From an uncultured Verrucomicrobiae bacterium (GTDB lineage Bacteria; Verrucomicrobiota; Verrucomicrobiia; Chthoniobacterales; UBA10450), in assembly GCA_963801255.1 (NCBI GenBank), contig CAWDEC010000006.1, forward strand, positions 650,898 to 714,897: 64,000 nucleotides of DNA, given 5' to 3'. Both the position numbers and the translations under genes were made by a program. A model generated the notes under the pieces. The model did not search any database. It had not been told where the DNA came from and saw nothing but the letters and a program-made list of their open reading frames with translations. This document shows, in pieces, positions 1 to 63,769 of this stretch; within the stretch, counting starts at the first letter, position 1, and each line of letters opens with the position of its first letter.

Positions 1-803
1 CGCCCTTCTGCCGCAACTTCCTCCATGGCGAGTCCGTCATCGCGTGCGCAAAGGAATGCTTCGCGCGCGGCGTCGAGCGAGTCCAGTTCGATGGTTTCTA
101 TCTCGAAACGGGTGAGCGGGAGCCGCAAAGAAGCCATTTCCTTTTCACGAGCCTGGGGCGAGAGAAGCGCGGCGGTGTCACGGCAAAAAATGGCCTCCAG
201 TGTGAGCATTTCGCAAAACCACGACTCGTCGCGTCCGGCTTTCGTCAGCCAGTCGAGCAGCATTTCGACAGGGACTGAAGTGCGCTCGAAAAAGCGTGTT
301 TTCTCCGCGGCAATCAGGTCGGGATCGACCTGCTTTCCGTCCACTTCCCGCGCAGCGGCAACACGCCAGCTGAAACGCTCGGCCATGCGCCCGATTTCGC
401 GAGAGAGAATCAATTCCGCGACGAGCAACTCGCGCAATTCGTTGGGCGCAGTCAAGTAATCCCGGGCCTCCGGCTCGAGGTCATCCGATTGTTCGCCCCA
501 ATAATGCCTGACGAAAAAAGCGCCAAAATCGCCTAACGAAAGACCGCGGTCGCTTAACCACTGCTCGGTCTCTTCGGCGGTAATGAGATCGTGCTCGTAA
601 CGGAACCTCTCGGCCGCGGCGTCAATCGTTTCATCGCTGCATTCCAGTTGATGCTCATCAGCCCGCTGTTCGGCGGCGAGAAGTCGAAGAAGGTTGTTCC
701 AGGCCGATTGCAGCTCGCCGCGAAAAAGCGCAGCATCGAGCAGGTCGCCAAGAGTGAAAACGCGATCGCCGCAAAGGAAAACGACCTTTTGGTCGATTGC
801 CAT
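1..803 (-). CDS. hypothetical protein, N-terminal part only (gene runs off the left edge)
   Basis: Absent from the supplied ORF track because it is truncated. Hand translation of the minus strand from ATG (801-803) gives MAIDQKVVFLCGDRVFTLGDLLDAALFRGELQSAWNNLL... I checked that no TTA/CTA/TCA occurs in this frame down to position 3. The + strand ORF 25..459 is an S/R-rich shadow of it. Confidence 0.55.
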   Translation of the reverse strand, partial: MAIDQKVVFLCGDRVFTLGDLLDAALFRGELQSAWNNLLRLLAAEQRADEHQLECSDETIDAAAERFRYEHDLITAEETEQWLSDRGLSLGDFGAFFVRHYWGEQSDDLEPEARDYLTAPNELRELLVAELILSREIGRMAERFSWRVAAAREVDGKQVDPDLIAAEKTRFFERTSVPVEMLLDWLTKAGRDESWFCEMLTLEAIFCRDTAALLSPQAREKEMASLRLPLTRFEIETIELDSLDAAREAFLCARDDGLAMEEVAAEG

Positions 804-908
804 CATTGCCGTTTCACACATCCCCGAACAGTTGTTCTGGGGATAACCTATTATATTTCGACCGATGTCGAGCCAAACCCCGCAGGAAGTATCGACTGCG
901 CGCTCAGC

Positions 909-1949
909 TTACGACCAGTCGAGCACGATCTTTCCCGAGTTACCCGATTTCATCAGTTCGATCGCTTCCTTAAATTCGGTGTAGGGGAAGCGGTGGGTGA
1001 TGACCGGCGAAATGTCGAGCCCGCTCTGGATCATGGCTGTCATTTTGTACCAGGTTTCATACATTTCCCGGCCGTAGATTCCTTTGATCGTTAGGCCATT
1101 AAAAACGACCAGATTCCAATCGATCGCCGCCGTATCTGGCATGATGCCTAACAATGCGATCTTTCCGCCGTGAAACATCGCCGGCAGTAGATCGGCCATC
1201 GCTTGCGGGCTGCCTGACATCTCCAGCGCGACATCAAACCCCTCTTTCATTCCCAACTCCTGCATTGCGTTGGCGAGATCGCCTTTCCGCACATCAAGCG
1301 CGTGCACGTTTCTCGCCATCTTTTTTGCCAACTCAAGACGATAGGGATTTACGTCGGTGATGACGATGTTGCGGGCGCCGGCGTGGCGCGCGATGGCCAC
1401 TGCCATACAACCGATCGGGCCCGCTCCCGTGATCAGCACGTCCTCGCCTACGAGATCGAAGGAAAGCGCGGTGTGGGTCGCGTTCCCGAACGGATCAAAA
1501 CAGGAGAGTACGTCGAGCGGAATCTTCGAGTCGGCGTGCCAGACGTTTGACATCGGAATGGAGAGAAACTCCGCGAATGCGCCCTGCCGATTCACGCCGA
1601 CGCCTTCGGTGTTTGGGCAAAGATGCCGCCGTCCGGCGAGGCAATTGCGGCAGTGTCCACAGACAATGTGGCCTTCGCCGGTGACGAGGTCGCCTGGGGC
1701 GAAGCCCTGCACACGTGCGCCGACACGTTCGATGACGCCGACATATTCGTGGCCGACGACCATCGGTACTGGGATCGTTTTTTGCGACCAGGCGTCCCAA
1801 TTGTAGATATGGACGTCAGTCCCGCAGATCGACGTCTTCTTGATTCGGATGAGCACATCGTCGTCGCCGACCGGGGGCACCGGCACTTCTTCCAGCCAGA
1901 GGCCTGGCTTGGCCTCCTTTTTCACGAGCGCGCGCATCGTCTTTTGCAC
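909..1949 (-). CDS. tdh: L-threonine 3-dehydrogenase (Zn-dependent MDR family)
   Basis: 346-aa ORF with GHEYVG, CGHCRNC and GAGPIG motifs. Full-length resemblance to Tdh. Confidence 0.9.
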
Positions 1950-2010
1950 GGCAGAAGATTAGGCGAATCAGGAAGCCAGGAAAACAGGAAAGTGGACGCC
2001 TAGACCAGCG

Positions 2011-2373
2011 TTATCCCTTTGGCTCCCAAAGCTCGATTGGATTGCCTTCGGGATCACAGAGACGAGCGAAGCGGCCGTTGGGATAATCTTCCGGCTCGGT
2101 CACTTCGATTTTCGCTGCGCGCAACTGACCGATGATGGCATCAAGGTCGCGCACGCGAAAGTTGATCATCCATTGTCGATCGGCACTGCCGAAATACTGC
2201 GTATCCTTCTCGAAGGGCGCGAAAGCCGTCGGCCCTGCCTCTTGCGACCAGGGCTCTGTCTCATAATCCCCCGGCACCATATTGATGCCGAGATGCTCGA
2301 GATACCATTGGCCTAATGACGTCGGGTCCTCTGCACGAAAGAAGAAACCACCGATGCCGACAACTCGTTCCAT
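2011..2373 (-). CDS. VOC/glyoxalase family protein
   Basis: C-terminal 120 aa of ORF 2011..2481. Start moved to the internal Met (MERVVGIGGFFFRAEDP...) because the longer form overlaps the upstream gene and is Arg-rich. Confidence 0.7.
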   Translation of the reverse strand: MERVVGIGGFFFRAEDPTSLGQWYLEHLGINMVPGDYETEPWSQEAGPTAFAPFEKDTQYFGSADRQWMINFRVRDLDAIIGQLRAAKIEVTEPEDYPNGRFARLCDPEGNPIELWEPKG

Positions 2374-2422
2374 GCTCCCGGCAATCCTTTTTCTTCGAAG
2401 TCGATCAGATTGGACGCGCTGC

Positions 2423-4669
2423 TTATGGGCTGAGGTTGTAGGTCTCGACCAGGCCGATACCTGTTCCGCCGGCCTTTCCACTTAGAATCGCGGTGTAAGT
2501 GCCCGGACTCAGAGTCGTCAGAATGGCCGACTCACGATCGTCGGTTGGCGCGAGTTTAGTGGCTTCAATCGCTGCCTCCTGAGAGTCTTTCCAGTTATCG
2601 TTGGATTGAAGCACCGTGCCGTTGGAATCATGTAGCTCGAGCACCGGATCCTGTAAGGTTCCTGCTACCCCGACGCTGGCAAGCGATGGACCGATACCGC
2701 GAAGAAGTACCTGAGTATCCACGGTTCCCAGGACAATCACGCCGCCGATCATGACATCGTCTCCGGTTTGCACCAGCCCTCGAGTGGAGATGTTAGCGAG
2801 CTTGGAATCCACGGTGCGATCGACGTCGTAGACCTCGACCAGGGCGACGCCCGTTTCGCCGGCAACTCCCTGGACAATTGCGGTGTAAGCTCCCGGCGCA
2901 AGAGTCACTAGGAGCGCCGATTCAGCATCGTTCGTTGGGGCGAGGCCCTTGTCGATGATGGCTTGCATCTTAACGCCGGTCTTCCAGTTGTCGTTCTTAG
3001 CGACAAGTCCGCCAGCCTGGTCGTGTAACTCGAGGAAAGGATCGCCTAAGGCACCGGCGACGGGAAGGGAAGGACCAAGGGCGCGGACAACGACGTCTTT
3101 CGACTGGGTTCCCGTGACGATGAAGCCGCCAATAAGGACGTCATCGCCCGTTCCGACACTCAGTCGGGTCGAGATGTTGCCTAGCTGGACAGGGTAGAAC
3201 GGCGTCGGTGATGGAGTGGGTGTCGCTGTGGGCGTTGCGGTAGGCGTTGGAGTTAAAGTAGGAGTTGGTGTGGGCGACGGAGTAGGTGTCGCCGTTGGGG
3301 TTGGAGTAGGAGTTAGAGTAGGAGTCGGCGTTGCGGTTGGAGTGGGTGTAGGGGTCGGCGTCGCGGTTGGAGTTGGGGTAGGAGTCGGCGTAGAAGATCC
3401 GGCCGGCACGATCCGAAAGACGTTTCCGTTGATATCGGTGAGATAAAGCTCTCCCAAAGCATCCTCACCCATTGAAGTCAGCGCACCCAGGGTATAACCC
3501 CCGATGCGTGTCGGGAATAGCTCGGAGGTAATTTCGGTAAAGCCAGAAGCTGTCCCATTGCTGTAGGTAAGGGTGAAAACATGACCCGTGAAGTCACTTC
3601 CTGGCCCGAAGCAATCGCCGAAAACGTAAAGGTTCTTCAGGTTAGTAACACTTCCGCGATAGATATAGCCGCCGATGACGCAGGAGCCGGTCGCGCCATG
3701 AGTGTAGTCGTAGATCGGATCGACGGCATTAGGTGGCGGTGGATCATCGGGGTAATGCATATTTTGCACCGAACCTTCGCGAACCCGCCATCCATAGTTT
3801 TCTCCGCCTCCTGGGTTCGAACCCAGTTGTGTGTCTACTTCTTCGCGCGCGGTTTCGCCGACGTCTCCGATCAACATGTCGCCGTTGTGAAGGTCAAAGC
3901 TGGCACGAAACGGGTTCCGGAGACCGTAGCAAAAGATCTCCTGCTTGTTCGTGTCAGACCCGACAAAGGGGTTATTAGGCGGAATAGTATAGCTCCCGTC
4001 GGCTTCTACGTGGATGCGTAGCATCTTGCCCAGCAGGACCGTCGTGCTTTGGGCAAAGCCGCCCGGCGGAGCGTTGGAACCATCATCCTCCTTCAGGCCG
4101 CCATCGCCGGAGGAGATATACATATTATTATCATCGCCGGACCGCGGGCTAAAGCCGATCCAATCGAAGTTATGGTCGTGATCGGGTTGGTCGGCGCTAA
4201 TCACCACCAGTCGGCTCTGCGGGTCGGCTACGTTGGGGTCGGAAGTAACCTGGAATCGCGCGACGTAGGAAACGCCCGCACTAAAAACGCCGCCCGAATT
4301 GGTAGTGTAGGATACGTAAAAGAAACCATTGGTGGAGTAATGCGGATCGAAGGTCATGCCGAGAATACCTGTTCCCGAGCCCTGACCAACTATGGCTGTG
4401 ATATCCAGATACGGAGTGGGAAGCACGGTGTTGGTCGTGAGGTCAATGATCTTGATCTTGCCACCTTGTTCAGGCACAAAAATGCGGCTGGTATCGCCCG
4501 CCGGCGCACAGACGTAAAGCGGGATGGTTAATCCAGTCGCGATGCGGTTTGCTTCCGCCCCGGTCTGGCCGCTGGCCGCCGTCAGGGCAAAAGCCATCAT
4601 CGGAAGAAGAAGCGCGAAAAGTCGGCCTCGGACATTACGTGCGAGGCGATGAGATATAATGAACTTCAT
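2423..4669 (-). CDS. secreted PQQ-dependent sugar dehydrogenase-like beta-propeller protein with PT linker and two tandem C-terminal ~115-aa domains
   Basis: 748-aa ORF. It has an N-terminal signal-like hydrophobic segment and sorbosone/glucose dehydrogenase-like motifs ([20 protein letters not shown]). A (PT)n linker follows, then the duplicated NISTR...GDDV.IGG...DNWK domain. Confidence 0.75.
3200..3391 (-). repeat. low-complexity coding tandem repeat (Pro-Thr linker, ACN-CCN units)
   Basis: Translates on the minus strand to [65 protein letters not shown]. The antisense strand gives the artefactual GV-repeat ORF 3216..3446. Confidence 0.9.
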
Positions 4670-4746
4670 AAATTTGGTGCGCGGGGGGTTCCAGTTTTAC
4701 TACTTGCGTGTGCTACATACAAGGAAAGAATTGACCCGACTCCGAG

Positions 4747-5700
4747 GTGGACATTTCCACCTGGACTGTGATGATGCAGACCGGAATGTCCGCCACGCTC
4801 GAGAAACCTGCCCCTCCGGCGCCGACCGCGCGGCTGACTTTTATCTTCCGTTTTGCGAGCACTATTGTGCTCTGGACGGTTGCCCTCCTGATCGTGTTCT
4901 CGGGCTACGAGCTGGCCTTTTTTGCCCTCATCGGTTCGGTGGGGTTGATTGCGCTCTGGGAGTTTTATCGCATGCTCGATCACCGCGGGCTCCCGAATTT
5001 CAAGATCACCGCCATGATCTGCGGGGCGGCGATGCTGGTGGGGAGCTTCTACTATTTCTCAGTCTATGGGCCGGCCCGCTCCTACGACTATGAAATGGCG
5101 GTACTGCTTTTCTTTCTCCTGACGGTTTTCACCCGGCAGATGTTTAGCGGGCTGCGGGATGACGCGCCATTAAGGACGATGTCCTATACGCTTTTTGGGC
5201 TGCTCTATGTGCTCTGGCTCTATAATTTTATCACGAAGATCGTCTACGTAACGCCACGCACGCCCGCGGGCGCGACTACGGGGCAGTTCTACGTCTTCTA
5301 CTGCATCGCAATCACAAAGTTCTCCGATATGGGAGCCTATCTGACGGGGAGCCTGATCGGACGGCATCCACTCGTTCCCCACATCAGCCCCAAAAAGACC
5401 TGGGAGGGGTTTTTTGGAGCGATCGGTTTTTCGCTCCTGGCGAGCATGGGATTATTTGCGCTCATGCCCGGGCATCTCGCGGTCTTGAATTGGACGCACT
5501 CGATCGTACTCGGGCTCTTGCTGGGTTTCGCGGCGGTGGTTGGAGACTTGGCCGAATCCATCCTCAAGCGCAGCACCGGCGTGAAGGATTCCGGAAACAT
5601 GCTACCGGGAATCGGTGGAGCGCTTGATTTGGTCGATAGTCTCCTCTTCACGGCGCCGTTGCTGTTTTTTTATCTGCGGTTGGTAATCGGAGTGCCCTAA
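4747..5700 (+). CDS. cdsA: phosphatidate cytidylyltransferase (CDP-diglyceride synthase)
   Basis: 317-aa polytopic ORF with the C-terminal SxxKRxxGxKDxGxxxPGHGGxxDR-like signature (SILKRSTGVKDSGNMLPGIGGALDLVDS). It sits directly upstream of dxr as in many bacteria. The exact start is uncertain. Confidence 0.85.
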   Translation: MDISTWTVMMQTGMSATLEKPAPPAPTARLTFIFRFASTIVLWTVALLIVFSGYELAFFALIGSVGLIALWEFYRMLDHRGLPNFKITAMICGAAMLVGSFYYFSVYGPARSYDYEMAVLLFFLLTVFTRQMFSGLRDDAPLRTMSYTLFGLLYVLWLYNFITKIVYVTPRTPAGATTGQFYVFYCIAITKFSDMGAYLTGSLIGRHPLVPHISPKKTWEGFFGAIGFSLLASMGLFALMPGHLAVLNWTHSIVLGLLLGFAAVVGDLAESILKRSTGVKDSGNMLPGIGGALDLVDSLLFTAPLLFFYLRLVIGVP

Positions 5701-5771
5701 GGACAGGATTAGCAGCATTGTCAGGATAGATTCGTCCGATCCTGTTTAGTCTTCTAAGTCCTGTCTCACCT

Positions 5772-6932
5772 ATGAAGCGAAAAAGAGTCGTGGTGCTCGG
5801 GGCGACCGGCTCGATCGGCGAAAGCGCGATTAAGGTCGCTCGCGACATTCCCGAGCGCATGGAAATTGTCGGCCTGGCGGCAAAGTCGAACGCCCGCAAG
5901 CTGGCTGTGCAAGCTAATCTCGTTAGGCCGGAAGCGATTTGCCTCGTCGAGGAAGGAAAGCTCGGAGAACTCTGCGCAAATCTCGAATATCATCCGGCGA
6001 TTTTCACGGGCGAAGATGGTCTGATCGAAATCGCCCGCCTGGCGAACGCTGAAATGGTGCTGGTGGCCGTTGTCGGCACCGGTGGGTTGCGTCCGGCACT
6101 GGCGGCGATCGAGGCTGGCAAAGATCTTGCGGTGGCGAGCAAAGAAATTCTCGTCATGGCTGGTGAAGCGGTCATGAGCGCCGCGGAAGGCAGAGGCATT
6201 CGCGTCCTGCCGGTCGATAGCGAGCATAACGCGATCTTTCAATGTCTCGACGGGCGCTCGTCGGAGGTAAAACGGATTATCCTGACTGCCTCGGGTGGCC
6301 CTTTCCGTGAAACCTCGAGCGAAAAATTTGCCACTATCACGCCGGAGCAAGCCCTGAAGCATCCAACCTGGAACATGGGACCCAAGATCACGATCGATTC
6401 CGCGACGCTTTTCAACAAAGGGCTCGAGATGATTGAGGCGCATTGGCTTTTCGGTGTCGAAATGGCGCGAGTGGAAGTCATCATCCATCCGCAAAGCATT
6501 GTGCATTCGATGGTCGAGTTCACTGATGGTTCCGTTCTCGCCCAGCTCTCGCATTCCGATATGTGTTTCCCGATTCAATATGCCGTGACGTGGCCGGAAC
6601 GGGTGGCAAACACTCTGCCGCCGCTCGATTTCCACGCCTTGGGCAAGCTGGAGTTTGCTGCGCCGCGTCTGGTCGACTTTCCTGCGCTCAACCTCGCGAG
6701 ACGTGCGGGCGAAACCGGCGGGACACTCCCGGCGGTAATGAACGCTGCCAATGAGGTTGCTGTCTCAGCCTTTCTCGATCGCCAGATTTCCTTTCCGCGT
6801 ATCTGGCAAATGGTCGAGGAAGTGATGAATCGCCACGCGCCAATTGCCAACCCGACCCTCGATGCCATATTGGAGGCCGACCGTTGGGCGCGGCAGGAAG
6901 CCGCCAAAAGCGTTGTCGATTCGGGCCATTAA
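5772..6932 (+). CDS. dxr: 1-deoxy-D-xylulose 5-phosphate reductoisomerase
   Basis: 386-aa ORF with the GATGSIG NADPH motif, plus DSEHNAIFQC and the NKGLE motif. Confidence 0.95.
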   Translation: MKRKRVVVLGATGSIGESAIKVARDIPERMEIVGLAAKSNARKLAVQANLVRPEAICLVEEGKLGELCANLEYHPAIFTGEDGLIEIARLANAEMVLVAVVGTGGLRPALAAIEAGKDLAVASKEILVMAGEAVMSAAEGRGIRVLPVDSEHNAIFQCLDGRSSEVKRIILTASGGPFRETSSEKFATITPEQALKHPTWNMGPKITIDSATLFNKGLEMIEAHWLFGVEMARVEVIIHPQSIVHSMVEFTDGSVLAQLSHSDMCFPIQYAVTWPERVANTLPPLDFHALGKLEFAAPRLVDFPALNLARRAGETGGTLPAVMNAANEVAVSAFLDRQISFPRIWQMVEEVMNRHAPIANPTLDAILEADRWARQEAAKSVVDSGH

Positions 6933-6947
6933 TCATCCATCGAGCGT

Positions 6948-8354
6948 ATGTTGTCGCACGCCCTTCGAATCATCTTTATCCTACTGGAGGTTGTCCTCCT
7001 TTTTAACCTTCTCATCGTGGTGCATGAGCTGGGCCATTTCCTCGCCGCCCGCTGGCGTGGCCTGGTAATCGAGAAGTTCGCGGTCTGGTTTGGCAAGCCG
7101 ATTTGGAAAGCAAAGATCAACGGTGTCGAGTATTCGTTAGGCACGTTGCCGTTTGGCGGCTTTGTTTCTCTTCCGCAACTCGCTCCGATGGATATCATCG
7201 AGGGCGAAACGGAGACAGACCGTAGCAAGCTGCCGCCGGCATCGGCGCTCGATAAGATCATTGTTGCCATCGCCGGACCGATCTTCAGTCTGCTCCTCGC
7301 CTTGGTTTTTGCTGCCATCGTCTGGGGCGTAGGTCATCCTGTAAGCGAGGCCGACACAACAACCGTGATTGGTTTTGTTGAAGCGGGCTCACCCGCCGAA
7401 AAGGCAGGTCTGAAACCCGGAGATAAAATTCTCGAGGTCGATGGCAAAGCGGTGACGCGCTTTTCCGGCATGAGCGATAGCGTGACGTGGAATGTGATCC
7501 GGAGCGAAGGCGACTCGATTCTGTTCGTCGTCGAGCGCAATGGCCAGCGTATCACCACTTCGGTCGTGCCCTATATTGCGCCGAGCAGCGGTTGGCGGCG
7601 CAAAAGCGTGCGGCAGGTGCTGATTTATCCCGCGACTCTGCCTGTGATCGATGAAGTGCAGCCGAAGACGCCGGCGGCCGCTGTCGGTCTGCAACATGGC
7701 GACGTCATCCGTGGCTTAAACGGTCACCGCATTTATAGCCCGGTCGCGCTCAGCGCCTGGCTGGAAAATCATCCGAATCAGCCCGTCGTGCTCGACGTCG
7801 ATCGGCGCGGCCAGCAGCTTCATCTGACGGTTAAACCCGAGGTTTTGCCCAACGAAAAGGCACCACGCATCGGCATTGCCTGGGATACTTCCGGCCAGAC
7901 GAGCATTTCGCATCCGAATCCGGTGGAACAGGTCTACAACAGCGTTACCAGCACGCTGGAAACAATTGGCGCGGTCGCGTCTCCGAAGTCGGACGTGAGG
8001 CTGCAGCATCTGAGCGGTCCACTCGGCATCTTTCGCATTTACTATTTGCTCTTCGAAAATGAGCGCGGCTGGCAGCTGGCGTTGTGGTTTAGCGTGATCC
8101 TGAACGTCAATCTCGCCATCATCAACATGTTGCCGATTCCCGTGCTGGATGGCGGTCACATTCTCCTCGCGCTCGTGGAAGCCGTACGACGCAAACCCGT
8201 TAACATTCGTGTTCTCGAAGTTGTGCAAACTGGCTGTGCCGTGCTGATCATCGGTTACATTTGCTACATCAGCTTCTTCGACGTTGGCGATATGATCGGC
8301 GACAAACGGGAAACGACTCGACCACTTCCGACTCCGCAGGCGGCCAAGCCTTGA
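6948..8354 (+). CDS. rseP: RIP metalloprotease RseP (site-2 protease, M50)
   Basis: 468-aa ORF with HELGH near the N-terminus, PDZ region(s) and a C-terminal NxxPxxxLDGG motif (NMLPIPVLDGGH). Confidence 0.9.
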   Translation: MLSHALRIIFILLEVVLLFNLLIVVHELGHFLAARWRGLVIEKFAVWFGKPIWKAKINGVEYSLGTLPFGGFVSLPQLAPMDIIEGETETDRSKLPPASALDKIIVAIAGPIFSLLLALVFAAIVWGVGHPVSEADTTTVIGFVEAGSPAEKAGLKPGDKILEVDGKAVTRFSGMSDSVTWNVIRSEGDSILFVVERNGQRITTSVVPYIAPSSGWRRKSVRQVLIYPATLPVIDEVQPKTPAAAVGLQHGDVIRGLNGHRIYSPVALSAWLENHPNQPVVLDVDRRGQQLHLTVKPEVLPNEKAPRIGIAWDTSGQTSISHPNPVEQVYNSVTSTLETIGAVASPKSDVRLQHLSGPLGIFRIYYLLFENERGWQLALWFSVILNVNLAIINMLPIPVLDGGHILLALVEAVRRKPVNIRVLEVVQTGCAVLIIGYICYISFFDVGDMIGDKRETTRPLPTPQAAKP

Positions 8355-8458
8355 GCCGTTGCGCCGCTGATTCCTTCCCAATACAGTGAACAGAGTATGA
8401 CGTTGGGAGGGACTTCTAACCAATTTCGAAAGGCAACGGCACCCCACGACCGGAAACA

Positions 8459-10285
8459 GTGAAAAACCTTCTGACAAGCGCTTTTTCCGCCCGCCGCCGT
8501 CGGTCGCGTGAAGTGCTCGTCGGGCCCGTCGGTATCGGCGGCGACAATCCGATCCGTGTGCAGTCGATGATCACCTGCGACACGATGGATACGGAGGCTT
8601 CAATCGGGCAAACGATCGAGTTGGCAAAGGCCGGTTGCGAGATCGTCCGTATCACCGCGCCAACCGTAAAGGACGCGGCCAACCTGCAACATATCGTTGA
8701 GGGATTACGCCAGCGTGGCTGTGACGTACCGATCGTGGCCGATATTCATTTCAAACCTGAGGCCGCCTTGGAAGCAGCCAGGTGGATAGAGAAGGTGCGA
8801 ATCAATCCTGGCAATTATGCCGACTCGAAGAAATTCAAGATCATCGAGTATAGCGACGAGCAATACGCCGCCGAGTTAGACAGGATACGCGAGCGTTTCA
8901 CGCCGCTCGTCAGGCTGTGCCAGGAACGTGGCATCGCGATGCGTATCGGCACAAATCACGGCTCGCTCAGCGACCGCATTATGAACCGTTACGGCGACAC
9001 ACCGCTCGGGATGGTCGAGAGCGCGCTCGAGTTCGCCCGCATTGCTCGCGAGCTCGGTTATCACGCGTTCATCTTTTCGATGAAATCGAGCAACCCCAAG
9101 GTCATGATCGCAGCTTATCGCCTGCTCGTCGCACGACTCGAGGAAGAAGGGTCGGACTGGAATTATCCCATCCATCTCGGCGTCACCGAAGCGGGCGAAG
9201 GCGAGGACGCGCGGATAAAAAGCGCGATCGGGATCGGTTCCCTTTTGCAGGATGGAATCGGCGACACAATCCGTGTTTCGCTCACCGAAGACAGCATCCA
9301 TGAAATCCCAGTCGCGCAAGCGCTCGTGGAGATGGTGTCGACGCGCGACTCGGAAGGCGCAACTCGACATGTATCCGCGATCGAAGGTCAATATGGTTTC
9401 GACCCCTTTTCTTACCGCCGACGCGAGAGCAGCGTGATTAAAGTCGTCGGGATCGACGACGACGTTTTGTTAGGCGGCGGCGAAACTGTCCGGGTTGCCA
9501 TCCGCCAGGACAATTTTGAAAAGGTCGCGCACAAGCTTGATCGCATGGGCGATTTCAAGCCCGAATTCATTTATGAGGAGTCCGGTATTGTGGAAGTCGA
9601 TCCACGCGATGACGCAGGCATCGCGGCCGTAAACCAAAGCTCGGACCTTAAGCTGGTGACGGTTGCGGACGGGCTCGACTTGCCTGTGGTCGGCGCCTAT
9701 CGCTTGCTCGCGACTCGCTTGGAACCGCGGCATCCGATCCTGCTCAAAGATAGTCTAACGATTTCCAAGGACCCGGCAGCTGATTTCCTGCGCACTCTCC
9801 TTCGTGCGGCGACGAACATTGGTGCACTCCTTTGTGATGGAATCGGCGACGCAATTCTCGTCCAAGGCGAGCATGGGCCTGGGCAGGCATTGCGTTTGTC
9901 TTATAACATTCTCCAGGGAGCCGGGACGCGTATTTTTAAAACCGATTACGTGGCCTGTCCGTCATGCGGGCGCACGTTGTTCAACCTGCAGACCACCACG
10001 GCACGCATTAAGGCCGCCACCCTTCATTTGAAAGGAGTGAAGATCGCGATCATGGGCTGTATCGTGAATGGTCCGGGCGAGATGGCCGACGCCGATTTTG
10101 GTTATGTAGGCGGCGCTCCCGGGAAAGTGAATCTCTACGTCGGCAAGACCGCGGTGAAATTCAACATTCCTGAAGTCGAAGCAGTCGATCGCTTAAAGGA
10201 TCTCATTCGTGAGCATGGCAAATGGGTGGAACCACCGGCCGACACGTCGTCCACGCTACCGGCAGCCGCATTGGCAAACGGTTAA
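8459..10285 (+). CDS. ispG: 4-hydroxy-3-methylbut-2-enyl diphosphate synthase, long form with inserted domain
   Basis: 608-aa ORF with a TIM-barrel N-terminal part (IRVQSM, RITAP, ADIHF, RINPGN). It has a large central insert and a C-terminal CPSCGR...GCIVNGPGE cluster motif. Confidence 0.9.
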   Translation: MKNLLTSAFSARRRRSREVLVGPVGIGGDNPIRVQSMITCDTMDTEASIGQTIELAKAGCEIVRITAPTVKDAANLQHIVEGLRQRGCDVPIVADIHFKPEAALEAARWIEKVRINPGNYADSKKFKIIEYSDEQYAAELDRIRERFTPLVRLCQERGIAMRIGTNHGSLSDRIMNRYGDTPLGMVESALEFARIARELGYHAFIFSMKSSNPKVMIAAYRLLVARLEEEGSDWNYPIHLGVTEAGEGEDARIKSAIGIGSLLQDGIGDTIRVSLTEDSIHEIPVAQALVEMVSTRDSEGATRHVSAIEGQYGFDPFSYRRRESSVIKVVGIDDDVLLGGGETVRVAIRQDNFEKVAHKLDRMGDFKPEFIYEESGIVEVDPRDDAGIAAVNQSSDLKLVTVADGLDLPVVGAYRLLATRLEPRHPILLKDSLTISKDPAADFLRTLLRAATNIGALLCDGIGDAILVQGEHGPGQALRLSYNILQGAGTRIFKTDYVACPSCGRTLFNLQTTTARIKAATLHLKGVKIAIMGCIVNGPGEMADADFGYVGGAPGKVNLYVGKTAVKFNIPEVEAVDRLKDLIREHGKWVEPPADTSSTLPAAALANG

Positions 10286-50328: not shown

Positions 50329-50357
50329 CCCGTTGCGCCCTAACGAAAGGAAAGAAG

Positions 50358-50795: not shown

Positions 50796-50810
50796 CGAAT
50801 TGTTGCGGCC

Positions 50811-55483: not shown

Positions 55484-56491
55484 ATGATCAAGCACAAAGA
55501 CCTGGGCGATTCGGAGAAGCGCGAAGTGATCGTGGTTGGTGGTGGCATCGCCGGACTTTCCGCTGCCATTTATCTCGGACGCGCGGAGCGCGACACCCTC
55601 GTCATCGACTCCGGACGCTCCATGGCGAAATGGGAACCAGAAGTGCAGAATTATCTCGGCTTCCCGAACGGCGTTGCCGGATCGCAGCTCCTGCGCTACG
55701 GACGGCGCCAGGCACGGCGCTATCAGGTCGAATTTGCCAACGACGAAGTGAAAAACATCGCGCGCCGCAAAAACGGATTTTTCCTGCGTGGCCGTCGGCG
55801 CACCTACAGCACTAACCGATTGCTCATCGCTACCGGCATCTTTCATCTGCCTCCTAAGATTCCCGGCGTAAAGGAGTGCCTTGGGCACAGCATGTTTTTT
55901 TGCAAGGATTGTGACGGTTACCGTGTGCGCGGAAAACGCATCGCGATCTGCGGCGCGAACAATGAAGCGGTCGAGTACGCACTCGGCTTGCTCCATTATT
56001 CGCCCTGTATCGTCGTAGCGACCAACGGCGAAAAACCGCGCTGGAGTCAGCGGTACGGACGCCTTTTGCGCAAGTACGAAATCCCGGTGCACCGGGACAA
56101 AATTACCGGGGTTGAGCATCGCGGGTGTCAGGTGCATGGACTGCGTTTCATGGGGGCGCGTGAGGTGCGGATCGATTACATTTTCACTACCCGCGGCGAT
56201 ATTTTTTATACCGAGCTGGCGGAATCGTTAGGTGCGCGCCTCGATGCGGACGGTCAGATCGAAGTGGATCAATGCATGCGCACGAGTGTGCCGCGACTTT
56301 ATGCCGCGGGCTGCGTTACGCCGGCCAACTGCCAGATGATCATTGCCGCCGGCCAGGGCGCGGCCGCCGCACAGGCGATCAATCGGGATTTGTTCGAGGA
56401 AAACATCAAGACCGATTCGTTGCGTCGCTTTCGCAAGGTGCAACTGAAGAAGGAAAGGACTGTGCCGGAGGAGGCTCGGCCTAACGACTAA
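55484..56491 (+). CDS. NAD(P)/FAD-dependent oxidoreductase, thioredoxin-reductase-like
   Basis: ORF 55349..56491 with the start placed at MIKHKDLGD (ATG 55484). It has the GGGIAG dinucleotide motif, the redox-active-like CKDCDG, and a second GANNEA Rossmann motif. Confidence 0.75.
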   Translation: MIKHKDLGDSEKREVIVVGGGIAGLSAAIYLGRAERDTLVIDSGRSMAKWEPEVQNYLGFPNGVAGSQLLRYGRRQARRYQVEFANDEVKNIARRKNGFFLRGRRRTYSTNRLLIATGIFHLPPKIPGVKECLGHSMFFCKDCDGYRVRGKRIAICGANNEAVEYALGLLHYSPCIVVATNGEKPRWSQRYGRLLRKYEIPVHRDKITGVEHRGCQVHGLRFMGAREVRIDYIFTTRGDIFYTELAESLGARLDADGQIEVDQCMRTSVPRLYAAGCVTPANCQMIIAAGQGAAAAQAINRDLFEENIKTDSLRRFRKVQLKKERTVPEEARPND

Positions 56492-56566: not shown

Positions 56567-57625
56567 TTAGAGGAGAAAGCGGCCGCGCTCCATGACCTGT
56601 TCGCCGTCGAACCAGATATCGAATTCGCGGCCGACGCAGTCGATGTGCGTTTTGGAAATCCAGTTCTGGCCAGTGTGCTCGGCGTAAGGATGGCCAAAGG
56701 CAATGTGGATTCCGGGGATCTTTTCGTCCTGGAGAATGTTACCGATAATGTGGGTGCAGGCGGTATTGGTCCCGACGGCGAATTCGCCCACTCGGTTGCT
56801 GTTCTCATCCGTGCTTGTGTAGAGACGAAAATCGTCGCGTAGATCCTTGTTTTCCGATTGGAGATTAACGATGCGGTTGTTCTCCACTTCAATCGTCAGG
56901 GGAGTTTCCTTCAGGTCGCCGTAGCGTTCGCAAAGATAATCCCCGACAACGCCATCGACGACGAAGACGCCGTTCGTGTTCATGGGGGAGGTGAAAATTT
57001 CGCCACCGGGCAAATTGCCCCATTTGTCCTTCGTGATAATGCCGCTCGTCTTGAGCCACTTCAGTTTGGGCGAAAGTTCGGCAACAAAATCGGTTCCGTT
57101 GCGCGTCTTACAAGTCACGCGCTCCGCCTTGCGCGCGCGTTCGACCAGCCGCTGGCTCAGCTCGTCGATCTTGAGAAAATCGGCCCGCATTCCTTCCAGC
57201 ATGATCTCGCGACTGATATTCACCATGTGGCCATGGCGAATGTGGTAGTGATTGACGACATCGCTCATCTGCATGCGCGAACCGAGCTCTCCCATCTGGG
57301 ATTGCGCAGCAAAGATCGACACCTGCGACGTGGCGAGATCGTCAAGAATGGCCTCGGGCATGAACTTGAGCGGTCGTCGCGCGTGATGCTCGAGCACGAA
57401 AAGACTGAAATCGCTTCCGATGCGTTCCACTTCTGTCTGCAGGGCGGCAGCAATTTCACGCGTAGCCGCATCCGTGATTATCGTGATGCGTTCGTTAGGC
57501 TGAAGACGCAGGCAGATCTCGACCGCATTACGGGCGCCGGGAAGCAGTTCGGGATCGACAGGATCTTGGTAGAAGCGATCGGGCATAAAGGTGTCAGGTG
57601 TAGCGTAAAATCGCAGTCCGGGCAA
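56567..57625 (-). CDS. aminopeptidase, M29 (AmpS/PepS) family
   Basis: 352-aa ORF with GGEIFTSP, VGEFAVGTN and HIAFG...HIDCV motifs. Confidence 0.75.
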   Translation of the reverse strand: MPGLRFYATPDTFMPDRFYQDPVDPELLPGARNAVEICLRLQPNERITIITDAATREIAAALQTEVERIGSDFSLFVLEHHARRPLKFMPEAILDDLATSQVSIFAAQSQMGELGSRMQMSDVVNHYHIRHGHMVNISREIMLEGMRADFLKIDELSQRLVERARKAERVTCKTRNGTDFVAELSPKLKWLKTSGIITKDKWGNLPGGEIFTSPMNTNGVFVVDGVVGDYLCERYGDLKETPLTIEVENNRIVNLQSENKDLRDDFRLYTSTDENSNRVGEFAVGTNTACTHIIGNILQDEKIPGIHIAFGHPYAEHTGQNWISKTHIDCVGREFDIWFDGEQVMERGRFLL

Positions 57626-59785: not shown

Positions 59786-61582
59786 CTAAAACGGGCTCGG
59801 ACTTGGACTTGGGCTCGCCAAGGTCGACGAAGGCGAGGTTGTCGGACTGGCTGACAACCCAGGTACTTTTAGTCCTTGGTGAAAATATGCGAGTGAGCCA
59901 ATTATCGCCGCCGCGATGCCGACAGTTGCCTGGCGAAACGTCACCGGGCCAATCGACTCCGTCACGTAGCCATCGTTTTCGTAGCGCTGCGACATCACAA
60001 TGGGAGAAAGGTGCCTTGTAATCGCCTCGGGGGGCGGAAACTTTGCCAGATCGACGGTCTTGTTCCAGGCGGGATAAAGTGTCGCGCCCATGGTCAGAAG
60101 CGGGCGAATCGCCGAGTCCAGCCGCTCGTAAAGCAACTTGGTATCGACATAGTTAAAGGCCGACTCACCTCGGGGCACTAGCGCATCCGCATCGCGAAAG
60201 GTTTTGTTTTTCTCGAGGCCATTCGGCGGAATCGCCCCGGTGAGCACTGCTTTCACTGCTCCCTGGTCCAAACCGAGAACGAAGAGCCGATCGTTCAGGG
60301 CCATCGTCAGGCTAAGTGGCACCAGTCCGTCGAGAATTTGCGCGCTGAAGAAGGTCGAACCGTTTTCCTCTGTTCTAGTCCAGCCTGCGCCAGCGACTTC
60401 CATAGTTGCGAGTGCATCGGCGATCTTACGTGCGCGGGACGGGTCTTTCACCGGCAGCGCTGCGAGGAACGCCGGCCAATGCGCGTCCTGCGTCCAGATT
60501 CCACTTGTCTCCGCCTGTTCGCCAAATGTGGCCCGTACTTCATCAGCGGTGATTCCATGCGAGTTCAAGGTTTGGCCGAAGTCTTGAAGCCACGCCATAA
60601 GGCCCTGAGCCGGTCCAGTCGACGGGGCGAGAAAGTTTGGCGGCCAATGCAGTTCTGAAACCGTGTAAAGAAAAGTATCGGTCGTCGCTGCTTTCAGGAG
60701 AGGCTGCGTCAACTTCTCCTTCGATCCCGCCCGCGGCATTTCCAGAAAATCCACCTCGCGCATCTTGCCGTGCTGAAATCCGAATGTGGTTGCGAAGCTG
60801 CGCACTGATTTCAGGCGTTCCAGCTCAGCCGTGGCGAGCGGCTGTTCCGCCATCGCCAAAAGAAGACTCAGCTTTTGCGCGAACGGCTGAGGATCAACGT
60901 AGAGCAGAGCGTCATAGTCGCTTCCCAGATGTTTGGTCGCTGCTGCGAAATGCGGATTTTCCTCCAGGGAACCGCTCGTTTGTTCGCCGCGGCGACGCGT
61001 TCGGTCGAGCAAAGCCTTCAAGGTCGCAAGATCATTCGAGGCAAAGAACCAGTGATTATGGTAGACGCTCGTGTAAGTGAGGTTACCCACGGCCACCACC
61101 TCGATCGGATGCTGTTCGTAGACGACCGTCGTATGTTTCGCCCCGCTCGATTTCGGCCACCAATTGGCCTCCCGCTGCGCGATGAATTGCCGAGCTTTCT
61201 CCTCTGTGGTCTCGAAATGAAACCCGCCGATGACCACGGGCTCGTTTTTTTCCAGGGAGGTGAGGGCGAGAAAGAGATGGTTCGAGCCGAGTTGCAGAAA
61301 TTCCTCCAGCGTTTGGTGGCTCGATTGATCTTTTGGCAATTGTGCGAGTGGGCGTTGCAGCCAGGCCTGCACCGAAGGCTCCCGCCAGATTTGATAAAGG
61401 TCACTCTGGTGCCAACGCTCACGCGTGCGCATCGGAGAACTCGCCTGTGCCAGGAGCAGTGTCGACCCAGGCAACAGCTCCGGCACTTTCGCCAACTGGT
61501 TCGCGATCTGAATCCGCAGCGTCACCCAAACCGCAGCTGCCACGACGAGCGCGATCGCTATCAGCGCGAGAAATTTTTTCAT
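59786..61582 (-). CDS. membrane-anchored hypothetical protein (DUF3352-like)
   Basis: 598-aa ORF with an N-terminal TM helix MKKFLALIAIALVVAAAVWV and a Ser/Pro-rich C-terminal tail. Confidence 0.55.
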   Translation of the reverse strand: MKKFLALIAIALVVAAAVWVTLRIQIANQLAKVPELLPGSTLLLAQASSPMRTRERWHQSDLYQIWREPSVQAWLQRPLAQLPKDQSSHQTLEEFLQLGSNHLFLALTSLEKNEPVVIGGFHFETTEEKARQFIAQREANWWPKSSGAKHTTVVYEQHPIEVVAVGNLTYTSVYHNHWFFASNDLATLKALLDRTRRRGEQTSGSLEENPHFAAATKHLGSDYDALLYVDPQPFAQKLSLLLAMAEQPLATAELERLKSVRSFATTFGFQHGKMREVDFLEMPRAGSKEKLTQPLLKAATTDTFLYTVSELHWPPNFLAPSTGPAQGLMAWLQDFGQTLNSHGITADEVRATFGEQAETSGIWTQDAHWPAFLAALPVKDPSRARKIADALATMEVAGAGWTRTEENGSTFFSAQILDGLVPLSLTMALNDRLFVLGLDQGAVKAVLTGAIPPNGLEKNKTFRDADALVPRGESAFNYVDTKLLYERLDSAIRPLLTMGATLYPAWNKTVDLAKFPPPEAITRHLSPIVMSQRYENDGYVTESIGPVTFRQATVGIAAAIIGSLAYFHQGLKVPGLSASPTTSPSSTLASPSPSPSPF

Positions 61583-61664
61583 CGGCGGAGTCTCGCATCA
61601 AATCGCGTCGCCGCGAGCCTCGCCGCGCGCTCGACATTTCGCGCGGCATCGACGATCTCCATGC

Positions 61665-62834
61665 ATGAAAAGATGTGCGGGCTCACAGCTCGTTCTCGGC
61701 CCATTCCACGAGAGCGCTGTCGTGACAGCCGCGGAAGAGGCGCTTGCCAACTGTGGCGGGCAGCCGACCTGTGGTTTTCTTTTTCTCTCCGCCAGCTGGC
61801 TACCTCAAATTGCTGAAGTTCTGGATCTCGTTAGGCTGCATGGCCGGATTCCACTCCTCGTCGGCGCAGTCGGTGGCGGGCTCATCGGCGTGAAGCGCGA
61901 AGCAGAAGGCGCCGCCGGCATGTCGCTCCTCCTCGTCCGGCTGGAGGAGACAAAGCTTACGCCGGTCGTCATTTCAAACGAACAAATCGAAGAATCGACC
62001 GGTCCGGCCTATTGGCAGATGGAAACCGGACTCAGTCCGGAGGACGTCGATTCCTGGATTGTTTTGGCGAACCCATTTGCGCCTGAGCTGGAACGTTGGC
62101 TGGCAGAATGGAACATAGCTTTCCCCAATACGCCGAGCATTGGCGGGTTGGCCAGCGGGATCAACGGTCCAGGTGAAAACGGTCTCCTCCTTGATGGCAA
62201 AATGATAGACGCCGCTGCCCTCGCGCTGGCCGTCAAAGGAACGAGGATTCGCACCATCGTTAGTCAGGGCTGCAAGCCGGTGGGTGAACCTTTTACCATT
62301 ACCCAGGCGGAAGAAAATCTCGTTTACTCGCTCGGCTCGCGACCGGCTTATCAGGTCCTTAGCGAAACCTTTAACGCTCTTTCCGATAACGAAAAAGAGC
62401 GCGCGCGGGGCAATCTTTTTGCCGGTATCGCTGCTTCCGAATATGTCGCCGAGTTAAAGCGCGGCGATTTTCTTGTCCGGAATTTGTTAGGCGCCGATCC
62501 GCAAACCGGCGCGGTCGCAATCGGTGCGCGCGCCCGGACCGGACAGACGCTTCAATACCAACTACGAGACAAGCGCACCGCGCACACCGACCTGGTCGAG
62601 CTGGCCACCGTGAATGGCTTGCAGGGTTGCGAGCCCTTTGCTTCGCTCATCTTTTCCTGCAACGGTCGCGGGCAACGATTTTTTGGCGCCCCAAATCACG
62701 ACGCCGCCACCCTGGCTGAAATCTTCGGCCCGGTTCCAAGCGCCGGCTTCTTTTGCAATGGCGAAATCGGTCCGATCGGTCACGCCAGCTATCTCCACGG
62801 CTACACCGCCTCCGTAGCGCTATTCTGCGATTAG
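61665..62834 (+). CDS. FIST N/C domain signal-transduction protein
   Basis: 389-aa ORF with the C-terminal FFCNGEIGP motif typical of FIST_C. Confidence 0.65.
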   Translation: MKRCAGSQLVLGPFHESAVVTAAEEALANCGGQPTCGFLFLSASWLPQIAEVLDLVRLHGRIPLLVGAVGGGLIGVKREAEGAAGMSLLLVRLEETKLTPVVISNEQIEESTGPAYWQMETGLSPEDVDSWIVLANPFAPELERWLAEWNIAFPNTPSIGGLASGINGPGENGLLLDGKMIDAAALALAVKGTRIRTIVSQGCKPVGEPFTITQAEENLVYSLGSRPAYQVLSETFNALSDNEKERARGNLFAGIAASEYVAELKRGDFLVRNLLGADPQTGAVAIGARARTGQTLQYQLRDKRTAHTDLVELATVNGLQGCEPFASLIFSCNGRGQRFFGAPNHDAATLAEIFGPVPSAGFFCNGEIGPIGHASYLHGYTASVALFCD

Positions 62835-63769
62835 TCCGATCGAATTTTGGCTCGCGGATGATACTTGTGGTGGATCGCCTTCAGCCGCTGCTGATCGACG
62901 TGCGTGTAAACCTGCGTCGTCGAAATGTCGGCGTGCCCGAGCATCTCCTGAATAATGCGCAGATCCGCACCGTTGCCTAACAAATGGGTGGCGAAACTGT
63001 GCCGCAAGAGATGCGGGTAGACATTTGCCTCCAAGCCGGAGCGTCGGGCGATCGCCTTCACAATCTGCCAGATGCGAACCGTCGTTAGGCGGCCGCCACG
63101 CACGGATAGAAAAACCTCACTTCCGCTCCGGCGCCGGACCAGACGTGGCCGCTCCTCTTCCAGGTAGGCAGCGAGCGCCCCGCAAGCCTTGCGCCCCACC
63201 GGCACAATCCTTGTCTTGTTGCCTTTTCCAGTCACGCGGACAACGCCGCTCTTCAGATCGAGATTTTCCAGCTTTGCTCCCGCCAGTTCCGAGATGCGAA
63301 GCCCGCTCGCGTAGAGCAATTCCAGCATCGCCTTGTCTCGCAGTCCCAAAGGCGCCTTCATGTCCACGCTTTCGAGCAATTGTTCGACCTGCAACTCATT
63401 CAAGGTCTCCGGTAGATAGCGCTCAATGCGCGGCAGACCTAACGACTCAGTCGGATCCTTGATGACAAAGCCGCGTGCGCCGGCGAAACGAAAGAAAATC
63501 TTCAAAGCCACCACAATGAGTTTGATCGAGGAAGCGGCGAGTCCGCCACGTTTCCGTTCCGCCAGGTATTCACTCACCAGAGGCAGCCCGACCTCCTGCG
63601 CCCGTGTGATCTGCTTTCGTTGCGCGCACCATTGGGCAAATTCCCCTAACGATCGCTGGGTGGAGAGCTGATAATTCTCCGACAAACCGCGCTCGACTGC
63701 GAGGTAGCGAATGAAAGCCTCGATCTCCTCCTCCATTGCGCTCCACGCTATCTGTGCTCGCGTTGACAA
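62831..63769 (-). CDS. tyrosine recombinase, XerC/XerD family
   Basis: 312-aa ORF with LRHSFATHLL, GADLRIIQEMLGHADISTTQVYTHV and the catalytic Tyr region. Confidence 0.85.
   Translation of the reverse strand: MSTRAQIAWSAMEEEIEAFIRYLAVERGLSENYQLSTQRSLGEFAQWCAQRKQITRAQEVGLPLVSEYLAERKRGGLAASSIKLIVVALKIFFRFAGARGFVIKDPTESLGLPRIERYLPETLNELQVEQLLESVDMKAPLGLRDKAMLELLYASGLRISELAGAKLENLDLKSGVVRVTGKGNKTRIVPVGRKACGALAAYLEEERPRLVRRRSGSEVFLSVRGGRLTTVRIWQIVKAIARRSGLEANVYPHLLRHSFATHLLGNGADLRIIQEMLGHADISTTQVYTHVDQQRLKAIHHKYHPRAKIRSD

Follow-up and report, generated by a model that had tools for sequence, protein, structure and literature searches.

An asymmetric 9-mer dispersed through soil Chthoniobacterales genomes with an uptake-sequence-like profile

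The window analyzed here (the whole stretch of 64,000 nucleotides from contig CAWDEC010000006.1, positions 650,898 to 714,897, of assembly GCA_963801255.1) comes from an uncultured member of the Chthoniobacterales (Verrucomicrobiota). It is ordinary chromosome, harboring dxr, rseP, ispG, typA, selD-selA-selB, carB, a helicase gene, metF, and surE, as well as genes for a selenocysteine-containing formate dehydrogenase, cytochromes, and a XerC/D-like recombinase. The same sequence is found, at 99.4 to 99.6% identity, on a 3.67-Mb contig. Dispersed over the window is a short word, the 9-mer GCCTAACGA with its 8-nt core CCTAACGA, which the initial annotation had described as hyper-abundant and compared with DNA uptake sequences. 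As read from its letters alone, GCCTAACGA is non-palindromic.

An exact search located 68 copies of CCTAACGA in the window, 40 on the plus strand and 28 on the minus strand (p = 0.18), corresponding to a density of 1.06 per kb, and this word gave both the most frequent 8-mer and the most frequent 7-mer of the window. Shuffles preserving dinucleotides yielded 1.03 ± 1.01 copies and at most 4. Under a stricter null model, in which synonymous codons were permuted while the codon pool and all encoded proteins were left unchanged, 8.9 ± 1.9 copies were obtained, with a maximum of 16; the observed number is far above both. The 68 copies extend to GCCTAACGA in 54 cases, to TGCCTAACGA in 20, and to GCCTAACGAA in 23. 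The base 5' of the 8-mer was G in those 54 copies and in 87% of a pooled set of 638 copies, and position-specific counts gave about 0.1 bit or less for each flanking position outside the 9-mer. The motif is therefore a sharply bounded 9-mer with unrelated flanks. Near matches were also in excess, with 52 one-mismatch 9-mers of all kinds against approximately 12 expected, among them 10 copies of GCCTAACAA against 0.17 expected. The initial annotation had reported at least 68 core copies, 54 of them extending to the 9-mer and many to a 10-mer, at least 20 further one-mismatch copies, and unrelated flanks, all of which held on recounting; a single copy listed at 57491 lies at 57492, and its positions for GCCTAACAA agree with ours to within 1 nt.

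Next, the distribution of the word among relatives was examined with a TypA query, which retrieved 80 loci, all from metagenome-assembled genomes (MAGs) of uncultured soil Chthoniobacterales. The 8-mer CCTAACGA was the top or near-top 8-mer in approximately 35 other species of the order, at 0.5 to 1.9 copies per kb, and the 9-mer GCCTAACGA occurred 558 times in 633 kb pooled from about 30 related species, where 3.8 copies are expected, an enrichment of 147-fold. On the TypA tree, motif-rich genomes form one monophyletic clade; neighboring lineages carry 0.2 to 0.6 copies per kb, and deeper lineages are near background, yet still about 15-fold over expectation. More than 40 independent MAGs carry the word; they come from many projects and were assembled with megahit, with SPAdes, or from long reads, so the enrichment is not confined to the window. 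A metagenome scan added at least some 20 soil contigs that are dense in the motif and represent unrelated parts of genomes, one of them with 16 copies in 4.4 kb. By extrapolation, the 3.67-Mb contig that carries the window sequence would hold about 3,900 copies. The 9-mer core appears constant between subclades, and no alternative dialect word emerged in the motif-poor lineages, whose top words are conserved orthologous segments. Lineages of intermediate density (L024, L026, L034, L039, L043, L048, L049, L057, L065, and L072) differ by a mild 3' preference, in which position +1 is G in 53% of the copies, +2 is never G, and +5/+6 are T. This preference could be a weak dialect or an effect of the coding frame.

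Most copies lie within genes. Of the 68 window copies, 59 fall within coding sequence and 3 between genes, while the other 6 provide stop codons; with respect to transcription, 39 are sense, 25 are antisense, and 1 is common to two convergent genes. The internal TAA and TAG leave four frames open, and all of them are used, reading PN[DE] or xLTx in one sense and SLG or xVR in the other. The initial annotation had read the same peptides, along with an A-stop and an R-stop in the respective senses, and had regarded the word as independent of frame and orientation, which agrees with this placement. In the pooled set (635 copies over 29 loci), 17% of the copies are intergenic, against 14.5% non-coding DNA. 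Sense copies outnumber antisense copies, 301 versus 172, and this excess stems mainly from PN[DE], the one frame that consists of common codons, with 194 of the 301. Copies and variants in the window are listed below; coordinates of copies give the span of the 8-mer, "9-mer" marks a copy that extends to GCCTAACGA, and xLTx, PN[DE], SLG, and xVR are the peptide readings.

532-539 (+): 9-mer copy; partial hypothetical gene, antisense, SLG
1088-1095 (-): 9-mer copy; Zn alcohol dehydrogenase gene, sense, xLTx
5920-5927 (-): 9-mer copy; dxr, antisense, xVR
7134-7141 (-): 9-mer copy; rseP, antisense, SLG
10307-10314 (+): 9-mer copy; intergenic, 3' of ispG, without terminator-like hairpin
14934-14941 (+): 8-mer copy, CCCTAACGA; typA, sense, PN[DE], site common to 43 species
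15523-15530 (+): 9-mer copy; gives the TAA stop of typA
15801-15808 (-): 9-mer copy; Rdx/SelW-like selenoprotein gene (15593-15832), antisense, IVR
15828-15835 (+): 9-mer copy; gives the TAA stop of the Rdx/SelW-like selenoprotein gene
16520-16527 (+): 9-mer copy; selD, sense, PN[DE]
16771-16778 (+): 9-mer copy; selD, sense, xLTx
16857-16864 (-): 8-mer copy; selD, antisense, xVR
17029-17036 (+): 8-mer copy; selD, sense, xLTx
17339-17346 (-): 9-mer copy; selA, antisense, xVR
17687-17694 (-): 9-mer copy; selA, antisense, xVR
17929-17936 (+): 9-mer copy; selA, sense, PN[DE]
18320-18327 (-): 9-mer copy; selA, antisense, xVR
18588-18595 (+): 9-mer copy; selA/selB overlap, sense in both frames
19079-19086 (+): 8-mer copy; selB, sense, xLTx
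19545-19552 (+): 9-mer copy; selB, sense, PN[DE]
19737-19744 (+): 9-mer copy; selB, sense, PN[DE]
20438-20445 (+): 9-mer copy; selB, sense, xLTx
20471-20478 (-): 9-mer copy; ends two convergent genes, as TAG stop for selB (+) and as TAA stop for the NrfD-like gene (-)
20602-20609 (-): 9-mer copy; NrfD-like gene, sense, xLTx
21317-21324 (+): 9-mer copy; NrfD-like gene, antisense, xVR
22064-22071 (+): 9-mer copy; 4Fe-4S subunit gene, antisense, SLG
22865-22872 (-): 8-mer copy; formate dehydrogenase alpha gene, sense, xLTx
24753-24760 (+): 9-mer copy; formate dehydrogenase alpha gene, antisense, xVR
25897-25904 (+): 9-mer copy; MFS transporter gene, sense, PN[DE]
27205-27212 (-): 9-mer copy; intergenic, with the convergent MFS and porin genes on either side, outside the terminator-like hairpin 27105-27122
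27696-27703 (-): 8-mer copy; porin O/P gene, sense, xLTx
29430-29437 (+): 8-mer copy; carB, antisense, SLG
30008-30015 (+): 9-mer copy; carB, antisense, xVR
30817-30824 (-): 8-mer copy; carB, sense, xLTx
31853-31860 (+): 9-mer copy; carB, antisense, xVR
32658-32665 (+): 9-mer copy; NUDIX gene, sense, PN[DE]
33335-33342 (-): 9-mer copy; sufE-like gene, sense, PN[DE]
34838-34845 (+): 9-mer copy; Xre/ParS antitoxin gene, sense, xLTx
36705-36712 (-): 9-mer copy; agmatine deiminase gene, sense, xLTx
37229-37236 (-): 9-mer copy; agmatine deiminase gene, sense, PN[DE]
37514-37521 (-): 9-mer copy; TAA stop of the helicase gene, within the start of the agmatine deiminase gene
38184-38191 (+): 9-mer copy; DEAD/DEAH helicase gene, antisense, SLG
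38541-38548 (+): 9-mer copy; DEAD/DEAH helicase gene, antisense, SLG
39404-39411 (+): 9-mer copy; DEAD/DEAH helicase gene, antisense, xVR
41721-41728 (+): 8-mer copy; aminotransferase gene, sense, xLTx
42648-42655 (-): 9-mer copy; hypothetical gene 42058-43293, sense, xLTx
42995-43002 (-): 9-mer copy; hypothetical gene 42058-43293, sense, PN[DE]
43066-43073 (+): 9-mer copy; hypothetical gene 42058-43293, antisense, xVR
45091-45098 (-): 9-mer copy; intergenic between divergent surE and patatin-like genes
47076-47083 (+): 9-mer copy; patatin-like gene, sense, PN[DE]
48304-48311 (+): 9-mer copy; gene 48154-50328, sense, PN[DE]
48370-48377 (+): 9-mer copy; gene 48154-50328, sense, PN[DE]
48761-48768 (-): 9-mer copy; gene 48154-50328, antisense, xVR
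50339-50346 (+): 8-mer copy; at the uncertain start of open reading frame (ORF) 50232-50795
50791-50798 (+): 9-mer copy; gives the TAA stop of ORF 50232-50795
51096-51103 (-): 9-mer copy; RoxA-like cytochrome c gene, antisense, SLG
52219-52226 (+): 9-mer copy; gives the TAA stop of gene 50811-52223
52546-52553 (-): 9-mer copy; gene 52462-53922, antisense, SLG
52974-52981 (+): 8-mer copy; gene 52462-53922, sense, xLTx
53692-53699 (+): 9-mer copy; gene 52462-53922, sense, PN[DE]
54050-54057 (+): 9-mer copy; hypothetical gene 53975-54670, sense, PN[DE]
56225-56232 (-): 8-mer copy; FAD oxidoreductase gene, antisense, SLG
56480-56487 (+): 9-mer copy; FAD oxidoreductase gene, sense, PN[DE]
57492-57499 (-): 9-mer copy; M29 peptidase gene, sense, PN[DE]
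61828-61835 (-): 9-mer copy; FIST-domain gene, antisense, xVR
63082-63089 (-): 9-mer copy; XerC/D-like recombinase gene, sense, xLTx
63438-63445 (+): 8-mer copy; XerC/D-like gene, antisense, SLG
63645-63652 (+): 8-mer copy; XerC/D-like gene, antisense, SLG
1146-1154 (+): GCCTAACAA, one mismatch
9467-9475 (-): GCCTAACAA, one mismatch
21604-21612 (+): GCCTAACAA, one mismatch
24306-24314 (+): GCCTAACAA, one mismatch
26698-26706 (-): GCCTAACAA, one mismatch
33591-33599 (-): GCCTAACAA, one mismatch
41155-41163 (-): GCCTAACAA, one mismatch
44951-44959 (+): GCCTAACAA, one mismatch
62484-62492 (-): GCCTAACAA, one mismatch
62975-62983 (+): GCCTAACAA, one mismatch

The copies force rare codons into the genes that carry them, since 19% of all CTA, 14% of all TTA, and 23% of all AGG codons of the window lie inside the motif. 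In motif-rich lineages, PN[DE] tripeptides are spelled CCTAACGA in 88% of the cases, versus 18% in motif-poor relatives, and SLG tripeptides are spelled TCGTTAGG in 66% versus 5%, while CCT makes up only 11% of the proline codons and TTA 2.7% of the leucine codons of the motif-rich lineages. The frequency of PN[DE] tripeptides themselves is doubled in the motif-rich as opposed to the motif-poor lineages. Stop codons are also affected, with 45 of 155 TAA (29%) and 23 of 102 TAG (23%) lying inside a copy, roughly 100-fold over positional chance. Overall, these results indicate that the word acts at the level of DNA, not on RNA or peptides, and that it has remodeled the codon choice, the stop codons, and the tripeptide content of the clade.

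To follow the origin of the copies, the window was aligned with two sister species at 88% identity. Among 32 aligned motif sites, 11 are common to all three species, and the sites that are not shared differ by one or two base substitutions, with no insertions; copies therefore arise and decay by base substitution, not by transposition. Motif columns are 93 to 97% identical, against 87 to 92% overall, and copies are retained in 54 to 83% of the cases, against 40 to 41% for all 8-nt windows (p between 6e-5 and 0.003 in three of four comparisons), so the word is preserved above background. The typA site common to 43 species reads CCT AAC GAx where the motif is present and CCG AAC GAx in species that lack it. 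The spectrum of near matches was graded along the word: edge variants are enriched (CCCTAACGA and GCCTAACAA 33-fold each, GACTAACGA 13-fold), whereas changes in the central CTAAC are not tolerated and near-cognates are depleted at positions 3, 4, 5, 6, and 7. For example, GCCAAACGA stands at 0.1 times expectation in motif-rich versus 0.7 times in motif-poor genomes, and GCCGAACGA at 0.6 versus 1.9 times. Such a graded profile is typical of a binding site, suggesting a putative one here, and depleted near-cognates beside tolerated edges are what directional conversion toward a protein-recognized word would predict.

Neither polarity nor regular arrangement was detected. No significant strand bias was found in 37 loci (binomial p > 0.06 each), and orientation was not correlated with GC skew. 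The spacing of copies in the window is Poisson-like, with a coefficient of variation of 1.09 that lies within the random range; regular spacing was thus rejected, and the arrangement gives no hint of structural regularity at the scale of the window. Inverted pairs with a gap below 30 nt numbered only 8 among all loci, about 1% of the copies. The window has two close inverted pairs, and both belong to coding sequence, of the selenoprotein gene in one case and of selB in the other. The intergenic copies of the window are not in terminator-like hairpins, and a role as terminator hairpin was rejected on these two grounds. No other word was comparably enriched; the counts of GCGATCGC and of CGATCG words match expectation here, and a second word around CGATCG that had seemed over-represented was accounted for by base composition.

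Motif density in the window peaks in a selenium-utilization island (15593-15832 on the plus strand, 16286-20477, and 22341-25826 on the minus strand), where selD, selA, and selB carry 2.6 to 4.1 copies per kb. Adjoining these three genes is a small gene for an Rdx/SelW-like selenoprotein (MKTEVRIEYCVVU...), whose in-frame TGA is at 15629-15631; in a near-identical public contig (L081), a 205-aa antisense ORF (11812-12429) is called in place of this gene. The formate dehydrogenase alpha gene has its selenocysteine TGA at 25029-25031, in the context QARI-U-HSSTV. Moreover, selB and the convergent NrfD-like gene overlap by 4 nt within the copy at 20471-20478. Zero copies occur in the 3-kb S8 peptidase gene (10462-13491), a GSDH-family gene (2423-4669), ispG (8459-10285), and a 598-aa hypothetical gene (59786-61582), and the genes neighboring these long motif-free genes reach 2 to 4 copies per kb. 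An Xre/MbcA/ParS-type antitoxin gene with one copy (34575-35051, plus strand) lies among housekeeping genes and is likely part of a toxin-antitoxin module.

Viral contigs were covered by two scans for close motif pairs, in which the numbers of matches were estimated to be at about chance level. One contig (L117, positions 1-12120; IMGVR_UViG_3300036819_000104) carries 10 copies against 0.17 expected, a host-like density, with 6 of the 10 at gene boundaries. It is a lambda-like phage head module, attributed to Chthoniobacterales, with gpA terminase, portal, S49 protease, and GP7 capsid genes, and the NCBI annotation of Chthoniobacterales MAGs includes its terminase family. Relatives of this terminase were found in a prophage (L128) with 0 copies in 22 kb and in a phage contig (L129) with 2 copies in 21 kb, whose hosts may or may not carry the motif. 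The prophage, which resides on a 2.25-Mb Chthoniobacterales-type contig, also encodes a cytosine DNA methylase (PF00145), whose gene (7297-8194) is called in two adjoining parts. In two viral contigs with a GC content of 0.47 to 0.50 (L102 and L086), GCCTAACGA occurs in short tandem arrays with a spacing of 51 nt, unrelated to the dispersed motif. A further set of high-GC metagenome contigs (0.71 to 0.75; L144, L147, L149, L152, L153, L159, L161, L165, L177, L178, L190, L202, L225, and L242) matched a two-copy pattern with only 2 to 4 copies each; these may share a conserved gene or a short repeat containing the pair and derive from an unrelated high-GC organism.

Judged at the sequence level, the profile of GCCTAACGA matches that of DNA uptake sequences, and we propose, with moderate confidence, that it may be a word for DNA uptake or self-recognition spread by a molecular drive linked to transformation. 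The initial annotation had reached for the same explanation, and three of the outcomes that it had listed as refuting it were not observed: the count is far from expectation, the enrichment extends beyond the window, and strand bias is absent. Uptake sequences find a counterpart here in the length, density, strand symmetry, independence of frame, conservation within a clade, origin by substitution, depletion of near-cognates, and remodeling of codons and proteome. The DNA uptake sequence (DUS) of Neisseria and the uptake signal sequence (USS) of Pasteurellaceae occur at a density similar to the 1.06 per kb of the window. Under this proposal, a candidate receptor of the transformation apparatus, such as a minor type IV pilin or a ComEA-like protein, would bind the asymmetric 9-mer in double-stranded DNA and read its central CTAAC most stringently. 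As a consequence, DNA of the same species would be taken up preferentially, and homologous recombination would swap resident alleles for incoming word-bearing ones. Point mutations that create copies would then be over-transmitted, and the word could climb to approximately 1 per kb within the constraints of coding. We infer the receptor, the competence of these bacteria, and the drive itself. ComEC loci have been reported in abundant, recombining populations of soil Verrucomicrobia (PMC7305173, Table S3).

Several observations weigh against an uptake role. All of the sequence evidence is equally compatible with a selected role inside the cell. No gene for ComEC, ComEA, DprA, a type IV pilus, or a candidate receptor was found within the 64-kb window, and a prepilin-motif scan gave no ORF in the sampled Chthoniobacterales loci. 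An uptake drive makes no specific prediction of the host-like density in the phage head module, unless this is a long-resident prophage. Moreover, the word departs from known uptake sequences in several features: unlike DUS and USS, it is not used in terminators and almost never forms inverted pairs (17% intergenic and about 1% in inverted pairs); unlike USS, it lacks AT-rich flanks, each flanking position carrying at most 0.1 bit; and its sequence resembles neither.

The alternative that survives best, which we regard as possible though doubtful, is an intracellular word resembling the highly iterated palindrome 1 (HIP1) of cyanobacteria, one that would be bound or modified in the cell and kept abundant by selection with no uptake specificity. 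Possible readers would include orphan methyltransferases, nucleoid-associated proteins, factors of recombination or repair, and discriminators of self and non-self. Like HIP1, the word is hyper-abundant within genes in all frames and spread by substitution, and its conservation above background is the argument from which selection on HIP1 was inferred (PMC5861425). The phage head module and the lack of terminator use, in which the word departs from DUS and USS, would also fit. On the other hand, GCCTAACGA is asymmetric, in contrast to HIP1 and to most words linked with methylation, which are palindromic; the spacing is Poisson-like; and no candidate for a reader or modifier was identified. HIP1 itself is now suspected of a role in transformation or uptake (bioRxiv 10.1101/2024.09.10.611283; 10.64898/2026.06.24.733823), which blurs the line between this alternative and the uptake proposal. 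It is unlikely, in our view, that the word is instead a genome-wide self-mark unrelated to uptake, read approximately once per kb as an asymmetric 9-mer by an intracellular system. The reader could then serve recombination or repair, strand discrimination or defense against foreign DNA, or the organization of the chromosome, and selection would have rewritten the codon usage, stop codons, and tripeptide content of a dominant soil lineage.

A neutral origin seems still harder to sustain. Here, a bias of mutation or mismatch repair, similar to very short patch (VSP) repair, would convert near-cognates to GCCTAACGA with no function attached, which we consider rather improbable. Copies do arise by single substitutions, the near-cognate GCCGAACGA is depleted in motif-rich and common in motif-poor genomes, the typA site exemplifies a synonymous G-to-T conversion, and the resident phage module carries the word as well. 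However, the effects of VSP repair are modest, and an enrichment of 60- to 150-fold is far beyond them. The depletion affects several central positions and not one mismatch type, with enrichment at the edges, which fits recognition of the whole word. Furthermore, codon preference is overridden to near saturation (88% of PN[DE]) and amino acid content is changed, and the two related phage regions are almost devoid of copies.

Selection on peptides, codons, or RNA, relics of repetitive extragenic palindromes (REPs) or miniature inverted-repeat transposable elements (MITEs), and an artifact of assembly or engineering can be taken together as very improbable. The moderate sense excess and the many copies at stop codons would speak for them. 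Against selection on peptides or RNA, the word has four unrelated peptide readings on two strands, its intergenic share follows that of non-coding DNA, the sense excess is mainly in the PN[DE] frame, and no structure or terminator accompanies the copies. A REP, MITE, or longer repeat was rejected because the flanks are free of information in the rich and intermediate clades, with no longer element; in addition, 65 of the 68 window copies are in coding sequence or form stops, unlike repeat elements, which are mainly intergenic. An artifact is at odds with the independent MAGs from different assemblers and with ORFs left intact. Least credible of all, and nearly negligible, is a polar word for chromosome maintenance of the Chi, FtsK-orienting polar sequence (KOPS), or architecture-imparting sequence (AIMS) type, read by RecBCD/AddAB or FtsK: although an 8- to 9-mer over-represented along the chromosome would suit it, such words are defined by co-orientation with replication, whereas orientation is balanced in all 37 loci and uncorrelated with GC skew, and the enrichment is far above that typical of Chi.

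The uptake-sequence-like signature suggests that these soil bacteria, which are among the most abundant and least cultivated, may recognize their own DNA, and this is now a directly testable question. Only two proteobacterial families are on record as having watermarks of the uptake type, and HIP1 of cyanobacteria may be a third case; if the proposal is true, an independent and equally extreme case in the Verrucomicrobia would make the phenomenon general, and self-selective transformation, or another form of DNA self-recognition, would shape the population genetics of dominant soil bacteria. The word can also serve as a barcode for binning metagenomic contigs, assigning hosts, and spotting recently acquired DNA, and it is a candidate element for constructs toward the genetic tractability of these organisms. 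Its graded density across lineages offers a natural experiment for finding its reader by phylogenetic covariation, and a drive at the DNA level on tripeptide spelling and stop codons matters for models of codon usage and gene prediction in these genomes.

Searching the literature for a genomic motif of this sequence, and for uptake sequences of Udaeobacter or other Verrucomicrobia, turned up nothing but primers and papers on other subjects, consistent with the statement of the initial annotation that no equivalent had been described. Among known genome words, DUS and USS, described from the Neisseriaceae and Pasteurellaceae alone, are 9- to 10-nt words with copy numbers in the hundreds to thousands; about half of them lie in terminators, often as inverted pairs, and a CTG core is common to all DUS dialects (bioRxiv 10.1101/2025.10.24.684340). 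With DUS (GCCGTCTGAA and its dialects; receptor ComP), GCCTAACGA shares a non-palindromic format of 9 to 12 nt, a density of approximately 1 per kb with both strands equal, a clade-wide presence inside genes in permissive frames, gain by point mutation, and conservation above background. It differs in its host, which belongs to another phylum, and in sequence, since it has no CTG core and only GCC...GAA coincides; its 9-mer core, moreover, appears invariant between subclades apart from the mild 3' preference. The likeness to USS (AAGTGCGGT / ACAAGCGGT) lies in a 9-mer core that is mostly intragenic, frames biased to tolerable peptides, effects on the proteome, and unequal importance of the core positions. 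Here, in contrast, the core is unrelated, terminators are not used while stop codons are extensively formed, and synonymous opportunities are far more saturated (88% of PN[DE]). HIP1 (GCGATCGC) is likewise a hyper-abundant word of octamer scale (15- to 300-fold), found inside and between genes of a large clade, gained by substitution, conserved above neutral expectation, and long obscure in function; HIP1, however, is palindromic and the target of known methyltransferases, and it has a periodicity of 10 to 90 kb. Chi, KOPS, and architecture-imparting words are also over-represented chromosomal 8-mers recognized by DNA-processing machines, but they are strongly co-oriented with replication and modestly enriched, whereas GCCTAACGA has no polarity and is enriched 60- to 150-fold. 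Taken together, GCCTAACGA belongs with the watermarks of the DUS, USS, and HIP1 type, yet it stands outside the DUS, USS, and HIP1 families themselves.

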